Positions 8,251-52,270 of a stretch of 64,000 bases of DNA are shown here, piece after piece (within the stretch, counting starts at the first letter, position 1; every line of letters starts with the position of its first letter). Location of the stretch: the NCBI GenBank assembly GCA_001820095.1, contig MHOO01000011.1, positions 1,958-65,957 on the forward strand, read 5' to 3'. This DNA comes from Candidatus Staskawiczbacteria bacterium RIFCSPHIGHO2_01_FULL_39_25. GTDB taxonomy: Bacteria > Patescibacteriota > Minisyncoccia > Minisyncoccales > Staskawiczbacteraceae. Under the pieces are notes generated by a model. It saw only the letters and a list, made by a program, of their open reading frames with translations, was not told where the DNA came from and did no database searches. The translations under genes and the position numbers were made by a program.

Positions 8251-9315
8251 ATGATCGCTCCAAAACCTTATCTTCTCGCAGCAATGCTTATCCTGATTGG
8301 AGGAGCAATTTATCTTATAAGCTTATATAGCATACCAAGAACGGGGCCAAACGAGCCAGTGACAGTTGCGCCCAGGACATCTGGGAAAAGTCAAATCTAC
8401 GAATTGGCCAAAGAGATTACTACGCCTGACGGATTTATAAACACCAATGGTAAATCCATCACGATCAACGAACTTATAGGCAAAAAGGTTATTTTAATTG
8501 ATTTTTGGACCTACAGTTGCATCAATTGCCAACGCACTACGCCGTATCTCAATGCGTGGTATGAAAAATATAAAGATAAAGGGCTTGTTATTATTGGAAT
8601 CCACACGCCCGAATTTGAATTTGAAAAAGATTATAATAACGTGAAAGCGGCCGTTGAAAAATTCGGCATCGCATTCCCTGTGGTGCTTGATAATGATTAT
8701 TCTACCTGGACGGCGTATAAAAACCGCTACTGGCCGCGAAAATATTTAATAGATATCGATGGGTATATTGTTTACGATCATATCGGCGAAGGAGCCTATG
8801 AAGAAACAGAAAAGGAAATTCAAGAGGCGCTCTCCGAGCGGATGACAATTTTGGGAGAAGGCGGCGCCATAAATCAATCCATTACCAAAGAAACTCCCAG
8901 TTATAGCGGAGCAAAAAGCCCGGAAACGTACTTCGGCGCGTTTCGCAACCAATTACTTGGGAATGGCGCGCAAGGCGTAGTCGGAAATCAACGGGGCCTT
9001 ACCATTCCTCAAGAACCCAAACTCAATACGCTTTACCTTGCAGGAGATTGGAATATTGCCAATGAGTTTGCCGAAAATAAAACAGGCCAAGCTAAGATAA
9101 TTTTCCGATACGAGGCTAAGAGCGTTTATTTTGTAGCTGGTTCAGAAAATGATGTGAAGATTAAAATTATCAAAGACGGCGAAATTGTTGGCGAGCAAAA
9201 CGTTCACTCACACAAACTTTATAATCTTATTGAAGATTCAGAGCTTGGCAACCATACGCTTGAAATTATCATTGAAAACCCAGGCCTTCGCGCTTATACC
9301 TTTACCTTTGGTTAA
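8251..9315 (+). CDS. TlpA/ResA-like thiol-disulfide oxidoreductase with C-terminal extracytoplasmic domain
   Basis: N-terminal TM; FWTYSCINCQRTTPYL CxxC redoxin fold; about 150-aa extra C-terminal domain. Confidence 0.75.
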   Translation: MIAPKPYLLAAMLILIGGAIYLISLYSIPRTGPNEPVTVAPRTSGKSQIYELAKEITTPDGFINTNGKSITINELIGKKVILIDFWTYSCINCQRTTPYLNAWYEKYKDKGLVIIGIHTPEFEFEKDYNNVKAAVEKFGIAFPVVLDNDYSTWTAYKNRYWPRKYLIDIDGYIVYDHIGEGAYEETEKEIQEALSERMTILGEGGAINQSITKETPSYSGAKSPETYFGAFRNQLLGNGAQGVVGNQRGLTIPQEPKLNTLYLAGDWNIANEFAENKTGQAKIIFRYEAKSVYFVAGSENDVKIKIIKDGEIVGEQNVHSHKLYNLIEDSELGNHTLEIIIENPGLRAYTFTFG

Positions 9316-33315: not shown

Positions 33316-33387
33316 GCTCCCGTGGTGAAATGGATATCACGACAGGCTTCGAACCTGTTATTGGGGGTTCGAGTCCCTCCGGGAGCA
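33316..33387 (+). tRNA. tRNA-Arg(TCG)
   Basis: Acceptor gctcccg/cgggagc; anticodon stem acagg/cctgt, loop ctTCGaa; T-arm gggggttcgagtccctc. Confidence 0.8.
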
Positions 33388-33414
33388 CAGCGCATTTTGC
33401 TAATCCTTATTCTT

Positions 33415-33816
33415 ATGAAAAAATTTTTACCGTTATTCCTATTATCATTAACTGTGTTACTGTTGTTTTCAGGAGTAGCACAGGCATCAGTATGCCCAGA
33501 ATTTAAGACTTCGCTGGTGCCTTGCGGGCAAAAGCCTGATTGCCCCTGCGAGCTTTTAGACCTTTTTGAAATGATTGGAAGAGTTTATTATTTCTTTGTC
33601 TGGGACATTGCAACTCCGCTTGCAGGTTTAATGATAGTAGTTGGGGGAGTTATGTTGCTGGTTTCTGGAGGCAATCCAGGATTGGCAGGAAGGGCAAAAA
33701 ATATCATAAAGTGGTCAATTATAGCTATTCTCTTAATTTTCGGCTCTTGGTTAATTATTGATTTTGTGTTAAAAGCAATAGGGTATACGAGAGCAGGAAA
33801 TTGGAGCGCATTTTAA
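33415..33816 (+). CDS. T4SS-pilin-like (VirB2/TrbC-like) small secreted membrane protein
   Basis: Signal peptide, Cys-rich CPEFKTSLVPCGQKPDCPCE, then two TM helices flanking GGNPGLAGRAKNIIKW; listed ORF start 33322 overlaps tRNA-Arg, ATG 33415 (MKKFLPLF) used; pattern shared with the N-terminus of ORF 50590. Confidence 0.5.
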   Translation: MKKFLPLFLLSLTVLLLFSGVAQASVCPEFKTSLVPCGQKPDCPCELLDLFEMIGRVYYFFVWDIATPLAGLMIVVGGVMLLVSGGNPGLAGRAKNIIKWSIIAILLIFGSWLIIDFVLKAIGYTRAGNWSAF

Positions 33817-33846
33817 CCCTTCAATAATTGCACTCGTAACTCACGT

Positions 33847-33919
33847 GCGCCCGTAGCTCAGTTGGCAGAGCAAATCCCTCTTAAGGATAAGGTCATTGGT
33901 TCGAATCCAATCGGGCGCA
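33847..33919 (+). tRNA. tRNA-Lys(CTT)
   Basis: Acceptor gcgcccg/cgggcgc; anticodon loop ctCTTaa; T-arm attggttcgaatccaat. Confidence 0.8.
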
Positions 33920-34048
33920 CACTTTCCCTGCCAAATATCTCTAAAGGGGTTTACAAAGAACTAAAAATATACTATAGTAATACAAAAGAAAGCAGTTGCT
34001 TTCTTTTGTATTTAAAAAATCATATAATTAACGTGAACTATAAATCTT

Positions 34049-34315
34049 ATGCTTAAAAAAGAGAAAAAAGAAAAGCTAATAAAAGAACACAGTATCCATG
34101 AAAAGGATACCGGCTCTTCAGATGTGCAAATTGCCCTGCTTTCAGAAGAAATAGATGCATTAGTCGCGCACTTAAAAGAACATCCGAAAGATATCCATTC
34201 TAAACGAGGGCTTATTAGGATGGTGGTAAAAAGAAAGAAATTGTTAAGCTACCTTCAAAAGAACGATGAAAAACGATACAAGGAAATTATTAAGAAATTG
34301 GGGCTGAAGAAGTAA
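34049..34315 (+). CDS. rpsO: 30S ribosomal protein S15
   Basis: 88 aa; TGSSDVQIALLSEEI..L..HLKEH.KD.HS.RGL S15 signature; upstream of pnp as usual. Confidence 0.9.
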   Translation: MLKKEKKEKLIKEHSIHEKDTGSSDVQIALLSEEIDALVAHLKEHPKDIHSKRGLIRMVVKRKKLLSYLQKNDEKRYKEIIKKLGLKK

Positions 34316-41258: not shown

Positions 41259-42431
41259 TCATTTATATTTAAGCAATGATCCTATTAAATATTTAGCTAA
41301 GGGGTTTTTAGCTCCCATGACCTGAAAATGCACATGGCATCCTGTTGCCTTTCCGGTTCTTCCCATTAAGCCAATCCTATCGCCTACATTAACCTGATCG
41401 CCGGGTTTTACAAATAACGTGGTAAGGTGTCCGTAATAAGTGACTATCCCCCCAGAATGCAATACGGTAATATGGTTTCCCATCCCCAGGTTCCATTTTC
41501 CATTAGACGCTGTTCTCTGCACCGTTCCCGCGGCCGCAGCATAAATAGGGGTTCCGCACTTATTAGCCACGTCTACGCCGTTATAATAGTGAAGCCCTTG
41601 GCTAATTTGTCCTTCGGCAGGGAAAATAAAGAAACTATCAGCCAACGGAGTGATTCCAATTCCAATAGAGGGAATTAGCTTTTGCGGCATAAAGCCCCCC
41701 GGAACAATTAATATATCCCCAATAAAAATATCCCCTTCGCCACTAAGGCCGTTAAGGGCAACAATGTCCTCGGTTTTTGATTTATATATTTTGCCTAAAT
41801 CACTTATGGTATCGCCGGATTTTACAATATGGAGCAACCCCGAAACTGGCAAGATAACCAGCTTTTGGCCCGTCTTAAGAGTTGAATTTTTAGAAAGGCT
41901 ATTTGCCCAGAGAAGCGTATTCACCGAGACATTAAAGCTTTGGGCAATAGATTCTATGGTATCTCCCGGTTGAACTATGTAATCGGTTACATCTTTTCTC
42001 TCTTGGACCTGTTCAGACCCCCCCATAATAGCTCCCAGGGTTTGCGTAGTCAGCACCCGCGGCGTTGAAATACCATAAACAAAATTATCCTCAATGATCT
42101 TTAAATCAGGGGTTTCACGCACCATGATATTGCTTTGGTCAAAAAAGAGATCGCCAGCATCTGAATTTTCGTTCTCAAAAAAGGAATTAAAAGAGAGCAC
42201 CTCGCCTTCTTTAAAATAGCTTAATCTAGCCAAACTATCTGAACCGGAAAACAATAGGCCTAACAATACCAAAGAAAAAAACCCAAAATAAAAAAGAGGG
42301 TTTTTAAATCTTTTTGAACAAAGAAAGCTGCCTATATTTTTTACCCGGTTAAATAAAATCCTTTGGATTTTAACCCCGCTTTTAGCGGGATTATTTAACT
42401 GGGTGAATTTTTCGTTAAAAAAGGTAAACAA
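41259..42431 (-). CDS. LysM-domain M23-family peptidoglycan metalloendopeptidase
   Basis: Two LysM (YIVQPGDTIESIAQSF; HIVKSGDTISDLGKIY); M23 motifs HYYNGVD and GCHVHFQV. Confidence 0.9.
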   Translation of the reverse strand: MFTFFNEKFTQLNNPAKSGVKIQRILFNRVKNIGSFLCSKRFKNPLFYFGFFSLVLLGLLFSGSDSLARLSYFKEGEVLSFNSFFENENSDAGDLFFDQSNIMVRETPDLKIIEDNFVYGISTPRVLTTQTLGAIMGGSEQVQERKDVTDYIVQPGDTIESIAQSFNVSVNTLLWANSLSKNSTLKTGQKLVILPVSGLLHIVKSGDTISDLGKIYKSKTEDIVALNGLSGEGDIFIGDILIVPGGFMPQKLIPSIGIGITPLADSFFIFPAEGQISQGLHYYNGVDVANKCGTPIYAAAAGTVQRTASNGKWNLGMGNHITVLHSGGIVTYYGHLTTLFVKPGDQVNVGDRIGLMGRTGKATGCHVHFQVMGAKNPLAKYLIGSLLKYK

Positions 42432-43564: not shown

Positions 43565-45931
43565 ATGCGTGATTTTTTCTCATCTATTCTGAAACAAAAA
43601 AAGATACTGTTTTTTATCTTGCTCTTTTTTGTTATCTCGGGAATTTTTTTGCCAAAAACAACATTTGCAATAGAATGGGTGGATAAAATAATAGATTCAA
43701 TAAGATATGCTCCCGAGAGAGTAGCAGCATTCATTGTAATATCATTTATTGCATTGCCAGCTATAACAGCAACATGGATTTTCAGAATGCTTGCTAACAT
43801 GGCGTATGCAACATTTAACTATGTGTTAAGTGAAATGATCCAAGATCCTGGAGATCAATGGGCAATAACTCGTAATCCTGTCTTTCTTGGCAGTTGGAAT
43901 ATTATAAAAAGCTATGCCAACATGTTTATTGTGCTGGGGCTTATTACCATTGCATTAGCCACTATTTTAAAATTTCGTGAAGATTATGGGGCAAAAAAGT
44001 TACTGCCGACACTTATAGGGGTTGCTCTCTTAGTTAATTTTTCCACGGTATTTGTTGGAATCATGATTGATGCATCAAACTTGGTAATGAAACACCTTGT
44101 GGTGGGAGGAGAACAGCAAGGTACTATTATTTCTTCCCTAAATATAGCTCACAACAATATTGTAGATCCATTATATAACCAAGCAATAGCTTCGGCGAGC
44201 GAAGCAAAAGATTGGTATGCCCCAATAGGCATAGGCTTAACCTATATAAGTGCAGAATATATTTTTGCAGCAATATATTTAGCCGTAGCGGTAATATTGT
44301 TTCTAATAACCTTAGTATTTATAGAAAGATATATTATGCTGGCAATTTTATTTATCTTTTCTCCACTAGCTTTTGTAGCTTTTATTTTTCCGGCCACAAA
44401 AAAGTTTTTTAGCAATTGGCTCCATCGTTTCCTTACTGCTTGTTTTTCCGGAGTAATTGCTGCTTTCTTTCTTAAGTTATCAGTAGGCATTCTAACTGTA
44501 TTTTCAACATCTGGTTCTAATATTTTTACCACATTTCAGGGAGAATCAGTTCTAGATACTATGCCGAAAATATGGATGCATCTTCTAATTGTTCAGGGAT
44601 TTTTATTTGCCGGATATAAATCGGCAAAGAAATCAAGTATTGTAGCGACCACAGTGATAGACACTGCAAAAGCTGTTGCTGGCGTAGTGATTGGAGCAAC
44701 TGCCGCAGTTGCCACTGGCGGCGCCTCGGCAGCCTTAAGGGCTACTGGAATTCCTGGAGCTGCACAAAGGGCTAAAGAGGGAATGAGTTATTATGGAACA
44801 AAATTAGCAGAAAGATTTGAGCCTCTTACTGGGGTTAGAAAAGGTACAGCTGATAGAATGAGACAACAAATGTTGCAAAAGCAAGTATCTACATCTGAAT
44901 CTGAAGAAAAAATGTCTGCCATGAGTTCTGAAGAAAGAGTTAAGTTAGCCTCTAAATTTAGAGATAATCGGTTGCTTTCTATAACTCCAGTTGATCCAAC
45001 TAAAATACAAGAAACAGTGGGACTTACAAAAGCTCTATTGAAGAATAAGGAGTTCGGTAATCTTGATAACGCACAACAAAGGCAACTTATTGAATTTATC
45101 AAAAGCAATGCTCCCAGCACAATCTCTATGAAGGAGTTTTCAAAGGTAAATGCTGACTATGGAGCCTACGATACGGATGCAGTTAATCAAGAAAAGAGAA
45201 AACTTATTGGCAAAACTAATCCTCGAACAGGTAACGCATATCTTGAGCATGACATGAATAATCCAAATGCAGCTCAATTTAAAGACATGCAAACTGATGC
45301 TGAAAATACCGTAATCAGAGATGCTTATGCTAAAATGGATGATAGTGAATTTAAGAAAATGAGCAATCAAGATATAGCAACCGAAGCAAAACAAGAAACC
45401 GCAAGAGGCAAACTAGCATTAGAAGAAGCTATAAAAAGAAATATACTTGGCATGGTTGGCAGCTTCGCAGAAACTGCCACACTAATTCAGGGTTCAGAAA
45501 AATATGGTTCAAAGGCCATGTATGAAGCTAAGAAAATTGACCCCAAATATGCTGAATATGATACAAAGGGAATACATGAACAACTTACTAAAAATGGCGT
45601 ACCAAATCCAACAATGGTTCCAACAACATCGCCTGACTTTATTAGAGCCCAACAAGAAGTTAAGTCAAACGCATATAAAAAGCTCACCGCTGGTTCTATT
45701 AGAAAAGACCTCTCTGATGATGCATTTGACTTGGAATTAGTGAAAAATGTCAGCGCTAAAAAGATAAGTGAAGCTAATAAGCAAGAGGGGCTCTCAACTA
45801 AGAAAATTGAAAAACTTAAAGCTTTAGAAGCAGATATCCAAGCAAAAGTATTGAATGCTTATGCAACTGGAAATAACGATGAAGCAGATCAATGGGCAGC
45901 TAAATTAAAAGCGATTAGAGCATTGTCTTAA
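43565..45931 (+). CDS. VirB6/TrbL-like polytopic membrane protein with about 450-aa Lys/Glu/Ala-rich C-terminal domain
   Basis: Signal peptide plus 7-8 TM in first 380 aa; first gene of the cluster containing PrgI-like and VirB4; assignment by topology and context only. Confidence 0.4.
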   Translation: MRDFFSSILKQKKILFFILLFFVISGIFLPKTTFAIEWVDKIIDSIRYAPERVAAFIVISFIALPAITATWIFRMLANMAYATFNYVLSEMIQDPGDQWAITRNPVFLGSWNIIKSYANMFIVLGLITIALATILKFREDYGAKKLLPTLIGVALLVNFSTVFVGIMIDASNLVMKHLVVGGEQQGTIISSLNIAHNNIVDPLYNQAIASASEAKDWYAPIGIGLTYISAEYIFAAIYLAVAVILFLITLVFIERYIMLAILFIFSPLAFVAFIFPATKKFFSNWLHRFLTACFSGVIAAFFLKLSVGILTVFSTSGSNIFTTFQGESVLDTMPKIWMHLLIVQGFLFAGYKSAKKSSIVATTVIDTAKAVAGVVIGATAAVATGGASAALRATGIPGAAQRAKEGMSYYGTKLAERFEPLTGVRKGTADRMRQQMLQKQVSTSESEEKMSAMSSEERVKLASKFRDNRLLSITPVDPTKIQETVGLTKALLKNKEFGNLDNAQQRQLIEFIKSNAPSTISMKEFSKVNADYGAYDTDAVNQEKRKLIGKTNPRTGNAYLEHDMNNPNAAQFKDMQTDAENTVIRDAYAKMDDSEFKKMSNQDIATEAKQETARGKLALEEAIKRNILGMVGSFAETATLIQGSEKYGSKAMYEAKKIDPKYAEYDTKGIHEQLTKNGVPNPTMVPTTSPDFIRAQQEVKSNAYKKLTAGSIRKDLSDDAFDLELVKNVSAKKISEANKQEGLSTKKIEKLKALEADIQAKVLNAYATGNNDEADQWAAKLKAIRALS

Positions 45932-45943
45932 ATTTGGTTAATT

Positions 45944-46447
45944 ATGGAAAAAATTAATAATCAACGAATAGTCTTTAACCTACCAGAAGATACCACAATA
46001 GTTGAAGTTATTGATGAAATTTTGAAAAATAATGGACTTGAGGAAAATAATAAAGAATTCATTAATAAATTAAAACAAGAGAAAGAGCCTAAATTTAGCG
46101 TAGCCAAAGACGCAGCGATAACCCTTGCACAAAAAAAGATCCCTGAAAAAAAGTTAATTGAACTACTGGCAAAACATCTCGAAACTTCTAAAGAAAATGC
46201 TGAAAAAATAGTGCGAGACATTAAGCAAAAACTTATTCCTTATGCTAAAAAAGTACCCACAGAAGAACCACTGAAAAAGAAAGAAATCATTCAGGCCGAA
46301 TCCCAAAAATCTCCCTTGCCTTATAGCAAAAAAATAGAAACCGCTAATGTAGAAGAAAACGCGGAAAAACTACAGAAGGCAAGAACGGTAATTCAGCAGA
46401 AAGAAGAAAGTAAGGGACCGGATTCGTACCGAGAAACTCTTGATTAG
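45944..46447 (+). CDS. hypothetical protein
   Basis: 167 aa, Lys/Glu-rich; no motif. Confidence 0.4.
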   Translation: MEKINNQRIVFNLPEDTTIVEVIDEILKNNGLEENNKEFINKLKQEKEPKFSVAKDAAITLAQKKIPEKKLIELLAKHLETSKENAEKIVRDIKQKLIPYAKKVPTEEPLKKKEIIQAESQKSPLPYSKKIETANVEENAEKLQKARTVIQQKEESKGPDSYRETLD

Positions 46448-46920
46448 GGTTTAGCGTCTAGGGGTTAGGGTATAGACAAAACTAATTAAACGCTAGACTC
46501 CAACACCTAAACCCTAATTCATTATGTATTTAGAATCCTATAAAAAACTCATAGTTTGGCAAAAATCTATTGAATTAGTAAAAAAAGTTTATATTTTAAC
46601 AAGCAACTTTCCACAGAGCGAACTTTATGGAATAACTTCACAAATGAGAAGAGCAGCAATATCTATTCCTTCAAATATAGCCGAGGGATACTCAAGAAAA
46701 AATTTAAAAGAATATTTACAATTTTTAAGAATTTCTTATGGTTCATCAACAGAGTTAGAGACCCAATTAATAATAGCAAAAGATTTATATAAGAACATAC
46801 ACTATAAACCTACCGAGGAACTACTAGAAGAAGTATTAAAAATGTTGAATGTAATGATTAATAAATTAGAAAACAAAAATTAACTAACTAAACGCTATAC
46901 CCTATACGCTAAACCCTAAC
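46444..46920. repeat. inverted-repeat-flanked cassette carrying a four-helix-bundle gene (IR arms about 46444-46522 and 46881-46920)
   Basis: Left ttagggtttagcgtctaggggttagggtatag vs right ctataccctatacgctaaaccctaa (reverse complement). Confidence 0.65.
46524..46883 (+). CDS. four-helix-bundle protein (23S rRNA intervening-sequence protein / Avd-like family)
   Basis: ISIPSNIAEGYSRKNLKEYLQFLRISYGSSTELETQLIIAKDL is the family signature. Confidence 0.8.
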   Translation: MYLESYKKLIVWQKSIELVKKVYILTSNFPQSELYGITSQMRRAAISIPSNIAEGYSRKNLKEYLQFLRISYGSSTELETQLIIAKDLYKNIHYKPTEELLEEVLKMLNVMINKLENKN

Positions 46921-46923
46921 AAT

Positions 46924-47328
46924 ATGTCACAATATCCCATTCCACAATTTATTGAAGAAGAAGGAAAAATTATCTTTTTCCTAACATTCCGGCAATTTTT
47001 TCTGCTTGCAGGAGGAGGAGCTGTTTGCCTTATTATATATTTTCTAGCCCCTTATTCCCTCTTTTTGGGCGCCGCGGCCCTTATTATGATAACGGTTATC
47101 GTCATAGCCTTTGTGAAGGTTCAGAACGCATCCATAGTAACTGTTGTGCTTAATATGCTTGGATTTATGGTAGGTAAAAAAAACTACACCTGGAGTAAAA
47201 GGGGAACAAATGCACGGCCCGAAACAGAAAGAAAGCAAGAATTTAAAAAACCCGTTGAAGTTCCGGCCCCAAAACTACAGCCCAGCAAACTAAGAGCAGC
47301 GCAGAAGATGATAGAGGTGAGGAAGTAA
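46924..47328 (+). CDS. PrgI/VirB3-like small T4SS membrane protein
   Basis: IPQFIEEEGKIIFFLTFRQFFLLAGGGAVCLIIYFL N-terminal pattern with two TM; immediately upstream of VirB4. Confidence 0.5.
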   Translation: MSQYPIPQFIEEEGKIIFFLTFRQFFLLAGGGAVCLIIYFLAPYSLFLGAAALIMITVIVIAFVKVQNASIVTVVLNMLGFMVGKKNYTWSKRGTNARPETERKQEFKKPVEVPAPKLQPSKLRAAQKMIEVRK

Positions 47329-47377
47329 TTATCCTAATTAACCTAATTATTCTAATTGTTCTAATCAAACCCTAATG
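47329..47377. repeat. ATTAG-type repeat arm (rc orientation) ending in ccctaATGtcc, which supplies the start of ORF 47375
   Basis: ttatcctaattaacctaattattctaattgttctaatcaaaccctaatg. Confidence 0.8.
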
Positions 47378-47770
47378 TCCAATGAAAAAAATACAAAATA
47401 CGATTTAGAAGAAAGAACTGCTAAATTCGGAGAAGATATTATAAATTTTGCAAAAATCATTCCAGTAAATCCAGTTACTCAAAGAATTATTCCTCAATTA
47501 GTAGCATCCGGAACTTCTATGGGCTCAAATTACTGTGAAGCAGACGATGCAGAATCTGGCAAAGACTTTAAGCATAAAATAGGAATTTGCAAAAAAGAGG
47601 GCAGAGAAACAAAATACTGGCTAAGGATGATAGCTGCTGCAGTGCCAGCATTAAGAGAAGAAGCACGAGTTTTTTGGCAGGAAGCTAAAGAATTACACTT
47701 AATCTTTAATGCTATTTATCGTAAAGTTAACAAAAAGCCTTTAGAAATTAAAAAATTAAGTATTGATTAG
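47375..47770 (+). CDS. four-helix-bundle protein, second paralog (TIGR02436-like)
   Basis: SGTSMGSNYCEADDAESGKDFKHKIGICKKEGRETKYWLRM matches the 4HB/IVS family pattern; flanked on both sides by ATTAG repeat arms. Confidence 0.65.
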   Translation: MSNEKNTKYDLEERTAKFGEDIINFAKIIPVNPVTQRIIPQLVASGTSMGSNYCEADDAESGKDFKHKIGICKKEGRETKYWLRMIAAAVPALREEARVFWQEAKELHLIFNAIYRKVNKKPLEIKKLSID

Positions 47771-47811: not shown

Positions 47812-48486
47812 ATGGAGCCGGCGACACAAGATTTTTTAGAAATTCAAGACATTAGAGAAGGCATTGTGATCTTGAAAAATAACAACATACGGGGGATATT
47901 AATGGTTTCCTCTATTAATTTTGCCTTAAAATCTGACGAGGAGCAGTCAGCCATTATTTATGCCTTCCAGAGTTTTTTAAACTCGCTGGATTTTTCGTGC
48001 CAGATTATCATACAATCCAGAAACATCAATATCACCCCCTACTTAGACAACATTAAAGCATTAGAAGAAAACCAAACGAGCGAGCTCATGAAAGCACAAA
48101 CTGCCTCATACGGAGAATTTATCCGAGAGCTAGTGAAAGGAGACAATGTAATGACAAAAAGCTTTTATGTGGTGGTGCCATATACGTTAGCAGAAATACT
48201 GGGAGTTGGATCTGCGGTAAGCAAATTTAATTTCTCTGAAATGCTAGGATTAGGCAAGAAAAGCAAAGGGGAGAATAAGCCGATAATAAAAGATGAAGAC
48301 TTTGAAAAGTGCAAAAACCAGCTTTGGCAAAGGATGGAATTTGTAGCCATGGGGTTAAAGAGGTGCGGATTAGACGTTATTCCCCTGACCACCCCGGAGT
48401 TGATTGAACTATTTTGGGCAACCCACCACCCCAGTGAAGCAGAAATCGGATACTCGCCGGAAGTAGTGCCAGAACTGCTGAAATAA
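47812..48486 (+). CDS. VirB4-family protein, N-terminal fragment
   Basis: FLEIQDIREGIVILKNNNIRGILMVSSINFALKSDEEQ matches the N-terminal domain of Gram-positive-type VirB4 (TcpF/PrgJ-like); stops at TAA at the first base of a repeat. Confidence 0.6.
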   Translation: MEPATQDFLEIQDIREGIVILKNNNIRGILMVSSINFALKSDEEQSAIIYAFQSFLNSLDFSCQIIIQSRNINITPYLDNIKALEENQTSELMKAQTASYGEFIRELVKGDNVMTKSFYVVVPYTLAEILGVGSAVSKFNFSEMLGLGKKSKGENKPIIKDEDFEKCKNQLWQRMEFVAMGLKRCGLDVIPLTTPELIELFWATHHPSEAEIGYSPEVVPELLK

Positions 48487-48787
48487 TTATTCTAATTGAC
48501 CTAATTTCTAATTGTTCTAATCAAATCCCAATTCCCAAGCCCCAATTCCCAAACGTAATTTGGGAATTAAGGAATTAGGCATTATTTTCTAGCAAGCGAA
48601 GGCAATAAAGATTCACAAATATTTATTGCCAAGCGGCGACGAAAATATGCTTTGCATATTTAGAATAATAGAAATAGGATTTATATAATACGTCGCTCGG
48701 TCGGCATACGTGAAACTGCGGTTTCCCCTATGCCTCCCTTGGCTAGTATTATTAGAGCAATTAGTATAATTAGAATAATTTCAAAAC
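48487..48787. repeat. composite repeat cassette splitting virB4: ATTAG arm, CCCAATTCCCAA repeats, and a 130-bp element (48655-48787) that is the inverted copy of 60153-60285
   Basis: Direct comparison: reverse complement of 48655-48787 matches 60153-60285 at about 97% over about 130 nt. Confidence 0.85.
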
Positions 48788-50590
48788 ATGTCATTTTTTA
48801 GTAAAAAAGAAAATAAGCAAAAAGGAGAAACAGAAGAAAGGTTCTTTGAAGAAGAGACTCTTAATATAAAGGATATTATTGCGCCTCCTTACATCGGGAT
48901 AACCCAGGACCATATTAATTTGGGCGAAAAATTCACCAAATCTTTTTTCATCTTTTCTTATCCTAGGTATTTAAACACAGGCTGGCTTTCCCCCGCTATT
49001 AACCTCAATGTCCCTATGGACATATCTTTTTTCATCCATCCCGTTAACAGTGAATTGATTTTAAAAAAATTAAGGTCAAAAATTACCCAAGTTTCCTCTG
49101 AATTAATGGAGCGGCAGGAAAAGGGGTTAATCCGCGATCCGGCGCTTGAAACCGGCTACCAGGACATTGAAACCTTAAGAGATAAGATAATTACTGCCCA
49201 GGAAAAAATGTTCCGGTTTGGGCTTTATATTACCGTATACCGGGACAATGCGGAACAAATGCGGGAAGTAGAATCAACTCTGCGGTCAATTTTTGAATCC
49301 CGACTAATCTATATAAAGCCCGCCCTATTCAAACAAAAAGAAGGGTTTATTTCCACCAGCCCCTACGGAATGGATTTGCTTTCGGTCCACATTCCTATGA
49401 ACACCGAACCGCTTTCCACCACCTTTCCATTTACGTCATTTGATTTAAGCTCTAACGAGGGAATTTTATACGGCATTAATGGCCACAATAATTCTTTGGT
49501 ATTATTTGACCGTTTTACCTTAGAAAACTCCAACATGGTGGTTTTTGCCAAGTCAGGATCCGGGAAATCATACGCCATAAAGCTGGAAATATTGAGATAC
49601 CTAATGTGGGGAGTTGATGTGATTGTTATTGACCCTGAAAATGAATATGAATTTTTGGCTGATGGAGTGGGAGGAGATTTCTTTAAGATATCACTAACAT
49701 CAGATTACCACGTAAACCCTTTTGACTTGCCAGTGCCAGGGCCCGATGACAGCGTAGATGACATTTTGCGGTCAAACGTAATAAATTTAGTGGGATTGTT
49801 AAGAATTATGCTAGGCGGATTGACGCCGGAAGAAGACAGCATCTTAGACCAAGCCCTTACCGAAACTTACGCCATACGGGATATTACCCCCCAATCTGAC
49901 CCTGCTACCTGGCAGGAAAATATACCGGTAATGTCTGACTTTGCGGAAATTTTAGAAAATATGACCGGAGCTGAATCCTTAGCCAGGCGCCTTAAAAAAT
50001 TCACCCAGGGAACGTTTGCGGGATTTTTTAATAGAAAATCAAATATTACGATTGAAAAAAACTTTATTGTGTTTGGCATACGGGATATGGAAGAATCTTT
50101 AAAACCCATTGCCCTGTTTATGGTCATGCGCTACGTATGGAATATCATCAGGAGCACGGTAAAAAAGAGGATTCTGGTTATTGATGAAGCCTGGTGGCTG
50201 ATGCAATCAGAAGATGGAGCTTCATTCTTGTTTGGCTTGGTAAAAAGGGGCAGAAAATATTGGCTGGGGGTAACTACCATAACCCAAGACATAGAAGATT
50301 TTATGAAGTCTTCATATGGCAAAGCCATTATTACCAATTCTTCGCTGCAGCTTTTGTTAAAACAGTCTCCGGCGGCTCTTGACGTACTGCAAACCACCTT
50401 TGACTTAACCGAACAGGAAAAAACACTTTTATTGGATGCCAATGTGGGAGAAGGCCTTTTCTTTGCCGGAAAAAAGCATGTCTATATCGGCGTAAAAGCC
50501 AGCTACACCGAAGACCAGATTATAACTACCAGCCCCGGGGAGGTTGAAAAAATCAGGGAGGCAAGGAAAAAATTACAACAACAGCAGTAA
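48788..50590 (+). CDS. VirB4/TrbE/CagE-family T4SS ATPase, C-terminal (ATPase) part
   Basis: IAPPYIGIT...FFIFSYPRYLNTGWL; Walker A FAKSGSGKSYAIK; Walker B VIDEAWWLM; 600 aa. Confidence 0.85.
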   Translation: MSFFSKKENKQKGETEERFFEEETLNIKDIIAPPYIGITQDHINLGEKFTKSFFIFSYPRYLNTGWLSPAINLNVPMDISFFIHPVNSELILKKLRSKITQVSSELMERQEKGLIRDPALETGYQDIETLRDKIITAQEKMFRFGLYITVYRDNAEQMREVESTLRSIFESRLIYIKPALFKQKEGFISTSPYGMDLLSVHIPMNTEPLSTTFPFTSFDLSSNEGILYGINGHNNSLVLFDRFTLENSNMVVFAKSGSGKSYAIKLEILRYLMWGVDVIVIDPENEYEFLADGVGGDFFKISLTSDYHVNPFDLPVPGPDDSVDDILRSNVINLVGLLRIMLGGLTPEEDSILDQALTETYAIRDITPQSDPATWQENIPVMSDFAEILENMTGAESLARRLKKFTQGTFAGFFNRKSNITIEKNFIVFGIRDMEESLKPIALFMVMRYVWNIIRSTVKKRILVIDEAWWLMQSEDGASFLFGLVKRGRKYWLGVTTITQDIEDFMKSSYGKAIITNSSLQLLLKQSPAALDVLQTTFDLTEQEKTLLLDANVGEGLFFAGKKHVYIGVKASYTEDQIITTSPGEVEKIREARKKLQQQQ

Positions 50591-52206
50591 TGTGTTACAA
50601 TTGTAATAATATGCAAATGCCAAAAAAATATAAAAAAGTTATTGTTGTACTGATCTTTATAGCTGTTATATTACCGCAAAGTACCTTGATTTTGGCATCG
50701 GAGGTAAACTACCCTCCCATTCCAGGAGCTCCTAGCCCCACCGATTTATTTTCATATATTGCCTACTTTATTACGTTTGCCGTAGTTGCAGCCGGGATAA
50801 TGGGGGTGGTATCTATTGTTATTGCGGGAATTAAGATATTGATCAATGCGGGCAGCCCGGCGGCAATAGGCGACGCAAAAGACAGAATTTTTGGCGCCAT
50901 TTTAGGGATCATCCTTTTAATGGCCTCTTTTATAATTCTGCGAACTATCAATGCGGAATTAGTTAATGAAAGAACGATTGCCCCAGACCTTAAAGCAGGC
51001 GCTGTTTATTATACTGTTAGTTCTGGCCTTAATGAAGATGGGGAGCTTTATATACAAGCGCCAGAAGCAGAGTCAAACACTGCTAATATACCACAACCAT
51101 ATGACACAATTTACTATTACTGCGAAGGCAATCCGGCAAATTATAGAAATCTTTTAGTGTGGGTATATAACGATTTTAACTTTCAGATAGATCGAAATAA
51201 AAATGGAGGCGCTGATGTTAATACTATTGTATTACCATGCAATCAAGGCACCCCCATATTAGACACTATCCTTTCTTTTAAAAGAAGCTACGAATACCCG
51301 GGAATTTATCTCTATCTTACCAATAAATGCACGGGCGTTAGTTCCCCCTCTCTAACACTAAGTGGTGATGTGCCCCGTTTTGATGCTCAAGCAAATAAAG
51401 AACAAAGACCTAAATCATTAAGAATTGTTAATGGAAAGGACCCCCGCCAAATATATGGAGTTATTTTTAATAAAAACCCTAAATTTACCGGGGAGTGTAC
51501 GCGGGTAGTATGGAATCCACAGCCAAATATTGAAAGTGAGTGCATAATTTTAGATGGGCAAGATGCTAAACCAAATGTATTCTTGACTGAAGAAAAATTT
51601 CTCCCCGAATCAATGTATGTAGTAAATTTTGATATAGATCTTGGACCAAGAGCAGGTGGCAGTATTGAGCTTTATAGTAAAGATTATATAGCGAGAATCC
51701 CGCAAAAAGCTGGCCCCAGCAATACTACCTCAGTAGGAACTGATGCTCAAAGGAATGCTGCTTTTGATATTGGCAATGTATTGCACATAAAAAATCCGGT
51801 GGAAGGTCAACCCACCCCAGATGCGTTGCTAAGAAAACCATTTTTTAAGGGGATAGGAGTAAGGTTTACGGCTACATACCCAGACACCGTAGAAGAAAGC
51901 TATGCTAATGGCAGTAGTGTGGGAGCCCGCTACTATGAGTATGGTTCGGCAACGACGCCCATAAACGGACAATATGAAAATTATCCTGAGGGAGGTGGAG
52001 GTGCCCAGTGCAATGATTATGACTATGAATGCATACGTAAGATAAAACATAATGGAACTTACTATACTATTTTTTATGCTCATAATAATTTGATCGGGGG
52101 TGAAGTTTGTGTAGTTAATACTAAATCAACTAATTTGCGCGATACTAAAATATTAGATAATAATAAAGTGATAACGGAGATAACTATAATTCCCACCACT
52201 CCCTAA
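50590..52206 (+). CDS. secreted/membrane protein: N-terminal T4SS-pilin-like domain fused to about 400-aa Cys/Gly/Asn-rich extracellular domain
   Basis: After the signal peptide, FITFAVVAAGIMGVVSIVIAGIKILINAGSPAAIGDAKDRIFGAILGIILLMASFIIL aligns by eye with the pilin ORF 33415; start more likely ATG 50611 (MQMPKKYKK). Confidence 0.5.
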   Translation: MCYNCNNMQMPKKYKKVIVVLIFIAVILPQSTLILASEVNYPPIPGAPSPTDLFSYIAYFITFAVVAAGIMGVVSIVIAGIKILINAGSPAAIGDAKDRIFGAILGIILLMASFIILRTINAELVNERTIAPDLKAGAVYYTVSSGLNEDGELYIQAPEAESNTANIPQPYDTIYYYCEGNPANYRNLLVWVYNDFNFQIDRNKNGGADVNTIVLPCNQGTPILDTILSFKRSYEYPGIYLYLTNKCTGVSSPSLTLSGDVPRFDAQANKEQRPKSLRIVNGKDPRQIYGVIFNKNPKFTGECTRVVWNPQPNIESECIILDGQDAKPNVFLTEEKFLPESMYVVNFDIDLGPRAGGSIELYSKDYIARIPQKAGPSNTTSVGTDAQRNAAFDIGNVLHIKNPVEGQPTPDALLRKPFFKGIGVRFTATYPDTVEESYANGSSVGARYYEYGSATTPINGQYENYPEGGGGAQCNDYDYECIRKIKHNGTYYTIFYAHNNLIGGEVCVVNTKSTNLRDTKILDNNKVITEITIIPTTP

Positions 52207-52270
52207 AATTTTGTATCCACCAAAAAACCACCGATTTTGACTCGGTGGTTTTTTGATTGGTATATTTTTA

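Follow-up and report, generated by a model that had tools for sequence, protein, structure and literature searches.

Layout of the gene and its product

The window analysed here is a stretch of 64,000 nucleotides from Candidatus Staskawiczbacteria, an ultra-small groundwater bacterium of the Candidate Phyla Radiation (CPR)/Patescibacteria, class Paceibacteria. It carries a chromosomal type IV secretion system (T4SS) cluster, and the last gene of that cluster (50590..52206, + strand), for which we propose the role of a modular T4SS pilin, is the subject of this report. A preliminary description of this DNA placed an open reading frame (ORF) of 538 codons at this position directly after VirB4, and the ORF list bears this out: translation from the first ATG gives 538 amino acids (aa), and this ATG shares one base with the TAA stop of the VirB4 gene, ORF 48788-50590 (TAATG). 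The start codon is nevertheless ambiguous, and either M8 (531 aa, as at NCBI) or M10 (529 aa, as in other sources) may be the true start. The NCBI protein OGZ63728.1, a 'hypothetical protein' of Ca. Staskawiczbacteria, is 100% identical to the product, which we will refer to as the fusion protein, and the identical protein is present on three or more contigs.

The fusion protein begins with a Sec-type signal peptide (residues 1-36; 50590..50697, + strand) that has a basic KKYKK and a hydrophobic core (hydrophobic segment 14-39, helix 12-30 in the structural model) and is probably cleaved after A36, where the family consensus reads ALA/LE. A36 is nearly invariant in the family, and E38, Y41 and P42 just past it are invariant. 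Read from the sequence, this leader of about 36 residues with its hydrophobic core and A-x-A type site is not a class III signal peptide, and we rejected a type IV pilus pilin as the identity of the protein because the leader is of the Sec type and not of the prepilin type. The mature protein would start with a VirB2-like pilin domain (residues 37-121; 50698..50952, + strand), which comprises a helix at 53-85, the loop AGSPAAIGDAKDR at 86-99 and a second helix at 100-120, and which closes with the conserved RTIN motif. Helix 2 is separated from the first beta strand by a linker (residues 122-136; 50953..50997, + strand), the length of which is fixed in the family alignment. The remainder is divided into the core of a beta-rich ectodomain (137-372; 50998..51705, + strand; seen in an AlphaFold2 (AF2) model and containing C178, C217, C247, C303 and C318), a variable insert that is weakly modelled and differs in length and sequence among relatives (373-475; 51706..52014, + strand), and a conserved C-terminal beta module with C481, C507 and a terminal IIPTTP (476-538 plus the stop codon; 52015..52206, + strand).

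The three hydrophobic segments of the protein are all N-terminal (14-39, 52-94 and 97-125), and none is found in the 413 residues past helix 2. Judged by these segments and by sequence pattern, the protein has a Sec-type leader and two hydrophobic helices with none later. The hairpin layout of PF18895 (T4SS_pilin) proteins, namely a leader and two hydrophobic helices separated by a short loop, is therefore present in the fusion protein, whereas their small size is not: PF18895-type pilins have about 100-190 aa and end soon past helix 2, in contrast to the 538 aa seen here.

The N-terminal region is related to a stand-alone pilin

The preliminary description had noted a resemblance between the N-terminal region and a stand-alone pilin-like ORF of the same window at 33415-33816, and had held that a likeness of generic hydrophobicity only would refute it. 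Pairwise and profile comparisons both support the resemblance. BLASTP aligns the two proteins at 34% identity over 71 aa (E 4e-9), and a profile built on the family's N-terminal part finds ORF 33415 as the sole match among the 226 ORFs of the window (E 2e-10 to 1e-10), with no match to any other multi-helix membrane protein encoded there. When ORF 33415 is shuffled such that the composition of each hydrophobic segment is preserved, 2000 shuffles score 0.2 +/- 2.1 bits against this profile, with a maximum of 15.1, and 0/2000 reach the 35.9 bits of the real sequence. These results show that the similarity is not one of generic hydrophobicity.

The same region of the fusion protein matches PF18895 over residues 62-118 (E 1.1e-3, 19.5 bits), and the small pilin, ORF 33415-33816, scores 35.8 bits and passes the gathering score. 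PF18895 is also matched by 10 of 11 close homologues of the fusion protein (E <= 0.1) and by all ten divergent members sampled, at 16.6-32.4 bits, with four of the ten above the gathering score. A word-indexed protein search with the pilin domain alone returned one irrelevant match of 60 aa. Comparisons at the sequence level thus support the assignment of the N-terminal region as a T4SS pilin domain (VirB2-like, PF18895) that is homologous to the stand-alone pilin.

A family with a fixed scaffold and a variable insert

To describe the family we used a profile of the ectodomain only, which, searched against 1.84 billion cluster representatives, matches 374 proteins at E <= 1e-3, of which 296 reach E <= 1e-10. 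The ectodomain matches begin at about residue 115-140 in almost all of the 374 proteins. Among the 154 proteins retrieved, the pilin domain is present in 150, and three N-terminal hydrophobic segments with none later are seen in 138. As judged from these sequences, the joining of pilin domain and ectodomain is constant and conserved across a family of at least 374 cluster representatives and does not stem from an assembly error. All source labels encountered for the family read 'hypothetical protein', and the named members belong to Ca. Staskawiczbacteria or carry generic metagenome-assembled genome (MAG) labels.

Conservation is distributed unevenly along the protein. Across 139 relatives the most conserved block of 20 residues is the helix 2 segment (101-120), at 2.9 bits per column, and the segment that follows it (121-137) has a constant length of 17 +/- 0.8 residues. 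This combination of a highly conserved helix and an invariant linker length suggests that the region makes specific protein contacts and is more than an anchor. In the same 139 members, the segment at 363-481 varies from 0 to 219 residues (median 73; 119 in the fusion protein) and alignment occupancy falls to 0.09, after which conservation of 1.3-2.0 bits is regained in the C-terminal module. This module stays at the extreme C-terminus even of giant relatives, as for example at 1334-1405 of a protein of 1405 aa.

Some relatives bear further modules on the same scaffold. A protein of 2057 aa (P0067) carries the prealbumin-fold domains SpaA_2 and SpaA_3, which are of a kind typical of Gram-positive surface proteins; another (P0150) carries the Cys-rich DUF7107, and a third (P0134) carries Peptidase_M23. 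At two loci, L009 (7109-12538) and L010 (2-4664), the single gene of the window is replaced by three tandem genes, each for a pilin-domain fusion with a different ectodomain, the products being of 913, 444 and 391 aa and of 499, 664 and 380 aa respectively. In the 913-aa paralogue the C-terminal region is of another, Cys-rich kind, which includes a stretch that looks helical and is not matched by the ectodomain profile.

Cysteines and predicted fold of the ectodomain

The preliminary description called the C-terminal domain extracellular and Cys/Gly/Asn-rich. The composition (1.9% Cys, 8.2% Gly and 9.0% Asn) shows the second term to be overstated, although the cysteines that it listed are all eight conserved: C178, C217, C247, C303, C318, C474, C481 and C507 are kept in 9-11 of 11 close homologues and in 87-100% of the 139 family members. 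The number of ectodomain cysteines is even in 121 of these 139, and C474 and C481 are lost jointly in 16. An even count and a joint loss fit a disulfide-bonded extracytoplasmic domain, and cysteine parity together with the topology set out above supports the extracellular placement.

The AF2 model, built from an alignment of 139 sequences, has a mean predicted local distance difference test (pLDDT) score of 83.3 and a predicted template modelling (pTM) score of 0.74, and consists of the hairpin (helices 53-85 and 90-120, pLDDT about 83-92), a short linker and a beta-rich ectodomain. Structure prediction, which the preliminary description had suggested for the C-terminal domain, gives confident beta-rich models for residues 151-370 (pLDDT 84-98) and for the C-terminal module at 481-538 (93-96). 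Between them, at about 371-480, the model is weak, with means of 43-67 for blocks of 10 residues except for 85 at 391-400.

In Foldseek comparisons with the PDB, the top recurrent matches of the model are gamma-crystallins and microbial beta-gamma-crystallins (PDB 3hzb and 3so1), with probabilities up to 0.99 and TM scores, normalised to the target, of 0.60-0.68, although with E values of only 1e-3 to 5e-2. We regard a beta-gamma-crystallin-like Greek-key module as a lead and not as an assignment; the Foldseek output gives no aligned query residues, and the module would be placed at about residues 226-320 by sequence pattern alone, Y240, C247, G249, S276, Y289 and G290 being conserved. Its pattern Y....C.G...S loosely recalls the Greek-key signature of beta-gamma-crystallins, but by eye there is no canonical calcium-binding motif and the resemblance would cover at most part of the ectodomain. 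Scans of Pfam and NCBIfam match no family to the ectodomain, and no crystallin family either. Alignment with hhalign to hand-entered sequences of gamma-D and gamma-B crystallin gives a probability below 2%, and hhalign between blocks of the ectodomain detects no internal repeats. Sequence searches of the PDB with the ectodomain profile (to E = 1) and with the full-length family profile (to E = 10) returned no match.

The T4SS cluster and its surroundings

The genes of the cluster are arranged in the order ksgA, VirB6/TrbL-like, an unknown gene, 23S_rRNA_IVP, PrgI, 23S_rRNA_IVP, TrsD/TraC-like, VirB4 and the fusion gene. The VirB6/TrbL-like polytopic membrane protein (43565..45931, + strand; 788 aa) matches PF04610 over residues 199-322 (27.1 bits; gathering score 25.9). 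Its C-terminal half from about residue 390 is, by eye, hydrophilic and charged and matches no family at E <= 0.1, and the protein would be an 'extended VirB6'. The PrgI/VirB3-like membrane protein (46924..47328, + strand) matches PF12666 at 32.6 bits (gathering score 27). VirB4 is split: ORF 48788..50590 (+ strand; 600 aa) encodes the C-terminal part of the VirB4-type ATPase (NF045971, 349.8 bits with a cut-off of 325; PF19044, 6e-27), and the equivalent of the N-terminal domain is encoded separately by the TrsD/TraC-like gene (47812..48486, + strand), the product of which matches NF041427 at 2.8e-8, below the curated cut-off, and also the N-terminal part of VirB4. The same split is seen in relatives, where the separate protein is matched as PF26593 (TraC-like), and a VirB4/TrsD gene split has been described for Patescibacteria (PMC12102498). 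Homologues of VirB4, TrsD, PrgI/VirB3 and VirB6 are clustered together here, as in the Patescibacteria-type T4SS, which is related to the mating-pair formation class FATA (MPF-FATA).

Past the fusion gene there is a hairpin, followed by the convergent genes jag, yidC and rnpA on the minus strand and then by dnaA and dnaN. The jag gene (R3H) is confirmed by Pfam, and the other four are read from their translations and match the Pfam-annotated order in relatives. The hairpin (52220..52256, no strand assigned) is situated between an A-run and a T-run in the gap between the convergent fusion and jag genes, and has a predicted RNA fold of -21.9 kcal/mol (z = -6.1 against shuffles). It is likely to be a bidirectional terminator that closes the T4SS transcription unit; a consensus terminator scan did not call it. 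The order VirB4, fusion gene, jag/yidC/rnpA and dnaA, with one small insert after VirB4 in some cases, is found at all eight related loci examined; the full-length family alignment retrieved 4 genome loci. Neither a relaxase nor a coupling protein was seen in the window, which is part of the genome and in which ten large ORFs outside the cluster were sampled; nine of these ten are housekeeping genes by Pfam and one has no match. We considered and rejected a mobile conjugative element as the setting of the cluster, in view of the housekeeping neighbours and the conserved synteny next to dnaA.

Several features of the cluster and its surroundings may be recorded here. Genes for 23S_rRNA_IVP four-helix-bundle proteins lie between T4SS genes in the window (46524-46883 and 47375-47770, + strand) and also at L001 (5061-5426), L003 (146-508), L008 (7206-7589) and L009 (3045-3410 and 3929-4294), occupying varying slots of the same operon among relatives with PDDEXK_3 genes or fragments alongside, and the VirB4 gene of L001 (1265 aa) is interrupted by an intein that bears a LAGLIDADG endonuclease. 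Small selfish elements seem to have settled in this operon repeatedly. Between the TrsD-like and VirB4 genes of the window there is an AT-rich (34% GC) non-coding spacer of 300 bp (48487-48787) that holds a hairpin-like inverted repeat, TTCCCAAA...TTTGGGAA, and in which no 23S_rRNA_IVP remnant and no Rfam family were found; the corresponding gap is only 12-16 bp in L002 and in the Joint Genome Institute (JGI) contig that carries P0067. An ORF of 167 aa, rich in Lys and Glu (45944-46447, + strand), separates the VirB6-like gene from the first IVP gene and matches no family convincingly. Relatives have at the corresponding position a gene for 214-227 aa without a Pfam match, and the ORF may encode a T4SS component that has so far escaped recognition. 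A gene on the minus strand (41259-42431), placed shortly before ksgA and VirB6 and found at the same site in one relative, encodes a LysM and Peptidase_M23 protein, a candidate cell-wall hydrolase for the T4SS (a VirB1 analogue). At 8251-9315 (+ strand) there is a Redoxin/AhpC-TSA and Thioredoxin_10 protein, which might be an extracytoplasmic thiol-disulfide oxidoreductase for cysteine-containing surface proteins.

A second, small pilin gene

The stand-alone T4SS pilin (33415..33816, + strand; 133 aa), which is a likely partner or major pilin, is encoded elsewhere in the window. A possible upstream GTG start is excluded by a tRNA at 33316-33387, and within 33316-34315 the gene is flanked by two tRNA genes, between the gene for the CCA-adding enzyme and rpsO (S15). 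Orthologues at 45-63% identity occur in other Staskawiczbacteria and share this synteny, with the CCA-adding enzyme gene on one side and rpsO-NYN-pnp on the other (L011, 4309-9651; L012, 2358-9715). The syntenic small pilin is found about 10-20 kb upstream of the fusion gene on the same contigs: L012 shares its contig with a fusion gene (L005), and on MHOR01000007.1 the two genes are about 20 kb apart. In this lineage, a single small pilin is thus retained together with one or more modular ones, in a conserved stretch close to the origin of replication. In Ca. Southlakia (Saccharimonadia), a 'pilin' gene that was scored non-essential (SEML1_0024) adjoins rpsO (SEML1_0025) (PMC10633639), and the adjacency of pilin and rpsO may be old.

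Proposed role of the fusion protein

We tentatively favour, at somewhat less than an even chance, the reading that this gene encodes a modular VirB2-like T4SS pilin, probably a minor one and possibly located at the tip, that displays its ectodomain at the surface and contacts the host. Both termini of the hairpin face outward in VirB2-type pilins, and by this analogy the disulfide-bonded ectodomain would be placed on the cell surface. After cleavage of the leader, the hairpin would lie in the membrane and turn its two ends outward, like the VirB2, TraA and TrbC pilins, and the T4SS would extract it like any pilin and insert it into a pilus or stalk made mainly of the small pilin. If each subunit bore an appendage of 45 kDa, a VirB2-type helix would become crowded, which is why the fusion protein is probably a minor subunit; such a subunit would most plausibly belong to the first layer to be assembled and hence end at the tip. 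The conserved core would serve as a scaffold, from which the hypervariable insert, or in relatives the SpaA-like or M23 peptidase modules, would contact or attack the host cell envelope. In functional terms the fusion protein would then fill the place of VirB5 or of the PrgB-type adhesins with a different protein.

A pilus-tip adhesin or minor pilin, which the preliminary description had suggested, is consistent with the evidence. It fits the position of the gene after virB4, the relatives with SpaA and M23 domains, the hypervariable insert and the co-occurrence of the small pilin. The further suggestion of a cargo role finds no specific support. More tentative still, though possible, is the general view that VirB2-class pilins are modular in the manner of type IV pilins, and that a class of filament subunits centred on Staskawiczbacteria bears large exchangeable ectodomains (SpaA-like stalks, an M23 peptidase, or a beta-gamma-crystallin-like core into which a hypervariable segment is inserted) for host recognition or for breaching the envelope.

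Several points weigh against the role that we favour. A T4SS pilus has not been demonstrated in any Patescibacterium (PMC12857230). The fusion protein's own PF18895 score lies below the gathering score of 26.6. The proposed location at the tip comes from a steric argument and from analogy. No adhesin, lectin or enzyme fold can be assigned to the ectodomain, and the weak crystallin-like match has no sequence-level support. At the related loci examined, the fusion gene or its paralogues are the sole pilin-domain genes within +/-8-10 kb of VirB4, so that the fusion protein could instead be the main pilin associated with the T4SS.

The alternative that survives best, unlikely as we judge it, is a membrane-anchored T4SS subunit that does not polymerise, with the hairpin docked to VirB6, VirB3 or VirB4 and the ectodomain forming the wall-spanning or extracellular part of the channel, in a role of the VirB8/PrgL type or as a stalk, components that can hardly be detected in Patescibacteria. 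Such a part would be wanted, as Patescibacteria have almost no VirB8 homologues and another protein has been suggested instead (PMC12102498), and no pilus has been shown for these systems. The gene behaves as one for a core machine part would, being single-copy here, translationally coupled to VirB4 and strictly syntenic, and conservation in its product is highest in the hairpin and in the linker of fixed length. A core channel part is, however, not expected to tolerate a hypervariable insert of 0-219 residues, and adhesin-type extensions of 1400-2000 residues or three divergent tandem paralogues would be equally unexpected of it. The anchor, moreover, is a pilin domain in particular, and the small pilin that would be its partner is conserved.

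We consider it improbable that the protein is a pro-protein, cut after helix 2 at RTIN and the linker to give a small pilin and a released disulfide-bonded effector or enzyme that acts on the host envelope. C-terminal processing is known in the VirB2 family, where RP4 TrbC matures in this way, and this counts for such a cut, as do the unusually conserved junction (T119, I120 and N121 are nearly invariant), the constant length of the linker and the relative with an M23 peptidase on the same scaffold. Yet neither a protease nor a recognisable cleavage motif was identified, a Sec leader alone suffices for secretion and makes a two-helix leader an odd cost, and the retention of the extreme C-terminal module even in the giants suggests one folded unit tethered to the hairpin.

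Little credence can be given either to a major subunit that forms a homopolymer, that is, a thick filament with a VirB2-like core covered by ectodomains in the manner of flagellin or large type IV pilins. The high conservation of the pilin helices would suit it, as would the standing of the fusion gene or its paralogues as the sole pilin-domain gene inside the T4SS cluster of this lineage. From the published geometry of F-type pili, however, we estimate about 650-700 square angstroms of surface per subunit, which would be too small for a 45-kDa domain on each of them unless the ectodomains are splayed widely, and a conserved small pilin is encoded nearby. The sub-threshold Pfam match notwithstanding, an artefact, be it an assembly or frameshift error that joined two genes or hydrophobic helices that are alike by chance, is refuted: the same architecture recurs in about 150 independent cluster representatives that come from many assemblies, the identical protein occurs on several contigs, and no shuffle reached the score of the real sequence.

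The question of what this protein does matters since the T4SS is among the few machines shown to be essential for epibiotic Patescibacteria, its cargo and its engagement of the host being open questions (PMC10633639 and PMC12857230). In this essential T4SS, the fusion protein is a concrete candidate for the element that makes contact with the host. If the modular reading is true, it would carry the 'modular pilin' principle of type IV pili over to T4SS pilins, as the first such class, and offer a direct handle on the host specificity of these symbionts. If the protein is instead a non-polymerising part of the channel, it would fill the missing VirB8/stalk gap in the parts list of Patescibacteria T4SSs.

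Comparison with known systems

The T4SS of Patescibacteria has been described as comprising VirB4, TrsD, PrgI, VirB6 and VirB2-like pilins of PF18895, often near dnaA and mostly without a relaxase, and no PrgB-type adhesin was detected (PMC12102498). Ca. Southlakia cannot grow as an epibiont unless it has both the T4SS and an array of small pilins (PMC10633639). A pilus conduit has been hypothesised for these systems in a review (PMC12857230), and pili-like appendages connect ultrasmall cells to their hosts (PMC7906910).

The closest counterparts are the small Patescibacteria pilins (PF18895), such as SEML1_0014-0019 of Ca. Southlakia epibionticum (PMC10633639 and PMC12102498), which have a homologous leader and hairpin with a G..P...G.AK loop and, like the fusion protein, are encoded in or near a VirB6/PrgI/TrsD/VirB4 cluster close to dnaA with no relaxase or coupling protein seen. 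Those Southlakia pilin genes for which lengths are shown have 381-435 nt, with nothing reported past helix 2, whereas the fusion protein adds about 410 residues. The fusion protein also has motifs of its own, E..YP at the mature N-terminus and RTIN past helix 2, and its gene is fixed as the last of the operon, unlike the published pilins, which form arrays of small genes.

In Gram-negative systems the gene for VirB5, a soluble helical bundle of about 220 residues without a pilin hairpin that acts as a tip adhesin, follows virB4. Like the VirB5/TraC minor pilin, the fusion protein would be secreted by Sec and is proposed here to lie at the far end of the pilus and to contact the target, and its gene directly follows virB4, as it also does in 8/8 related loci, sometimes with one small gene between. 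It matches no VirB5 family of Pfam or NCBIfam at E <= 0.1 and consists instead of a pilin hairpin and a predicted beta-rich domain, such that the likeness is one of position and proposed role and not of membership.

With the PrgB-type adhesins of Gram-positive conjugative T4SSs the fusion protein would share the character of a large surface protein that accompanies a monoderm-type T4SS in cell-cell contact, and the SpaA-like domains of its giant relatives recall Gram-positive surface proteins, but it is anchored by a pilin hairpin and has no detectable similarity to known adhesin families. Type IV pilins such as PilB of Streptococcus sanguinis (PMC8179133) share the design of a polymerisation module with a grafted adhesive module. 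They belong, however, to an unrelated superfamily with a prepilin-peptidase signal and one N-terminal helix, in contrast to the Sec signal, the two-helix hairpin and the module after helix 2 in the fusion protein. Within our incomplete coverage of the literature, the concept of modular pilins was found for type IV pili only (for example PMC8179133). The available passages of PMC12102498, PMC10633639 and PMC12857230 contain no description of a pilin fused to a large ectodomain, although an earlier description elsewhere is possible, and the accessions of the fusion protein were not found in the part of the PMC12102498 supplement that was searched. What was known, then, is a Patescibacteria T4SS with small VirB2-like pilins, and what appears to be new from the sequences described here is a pilin domain that carries a large, predicted surface domain.

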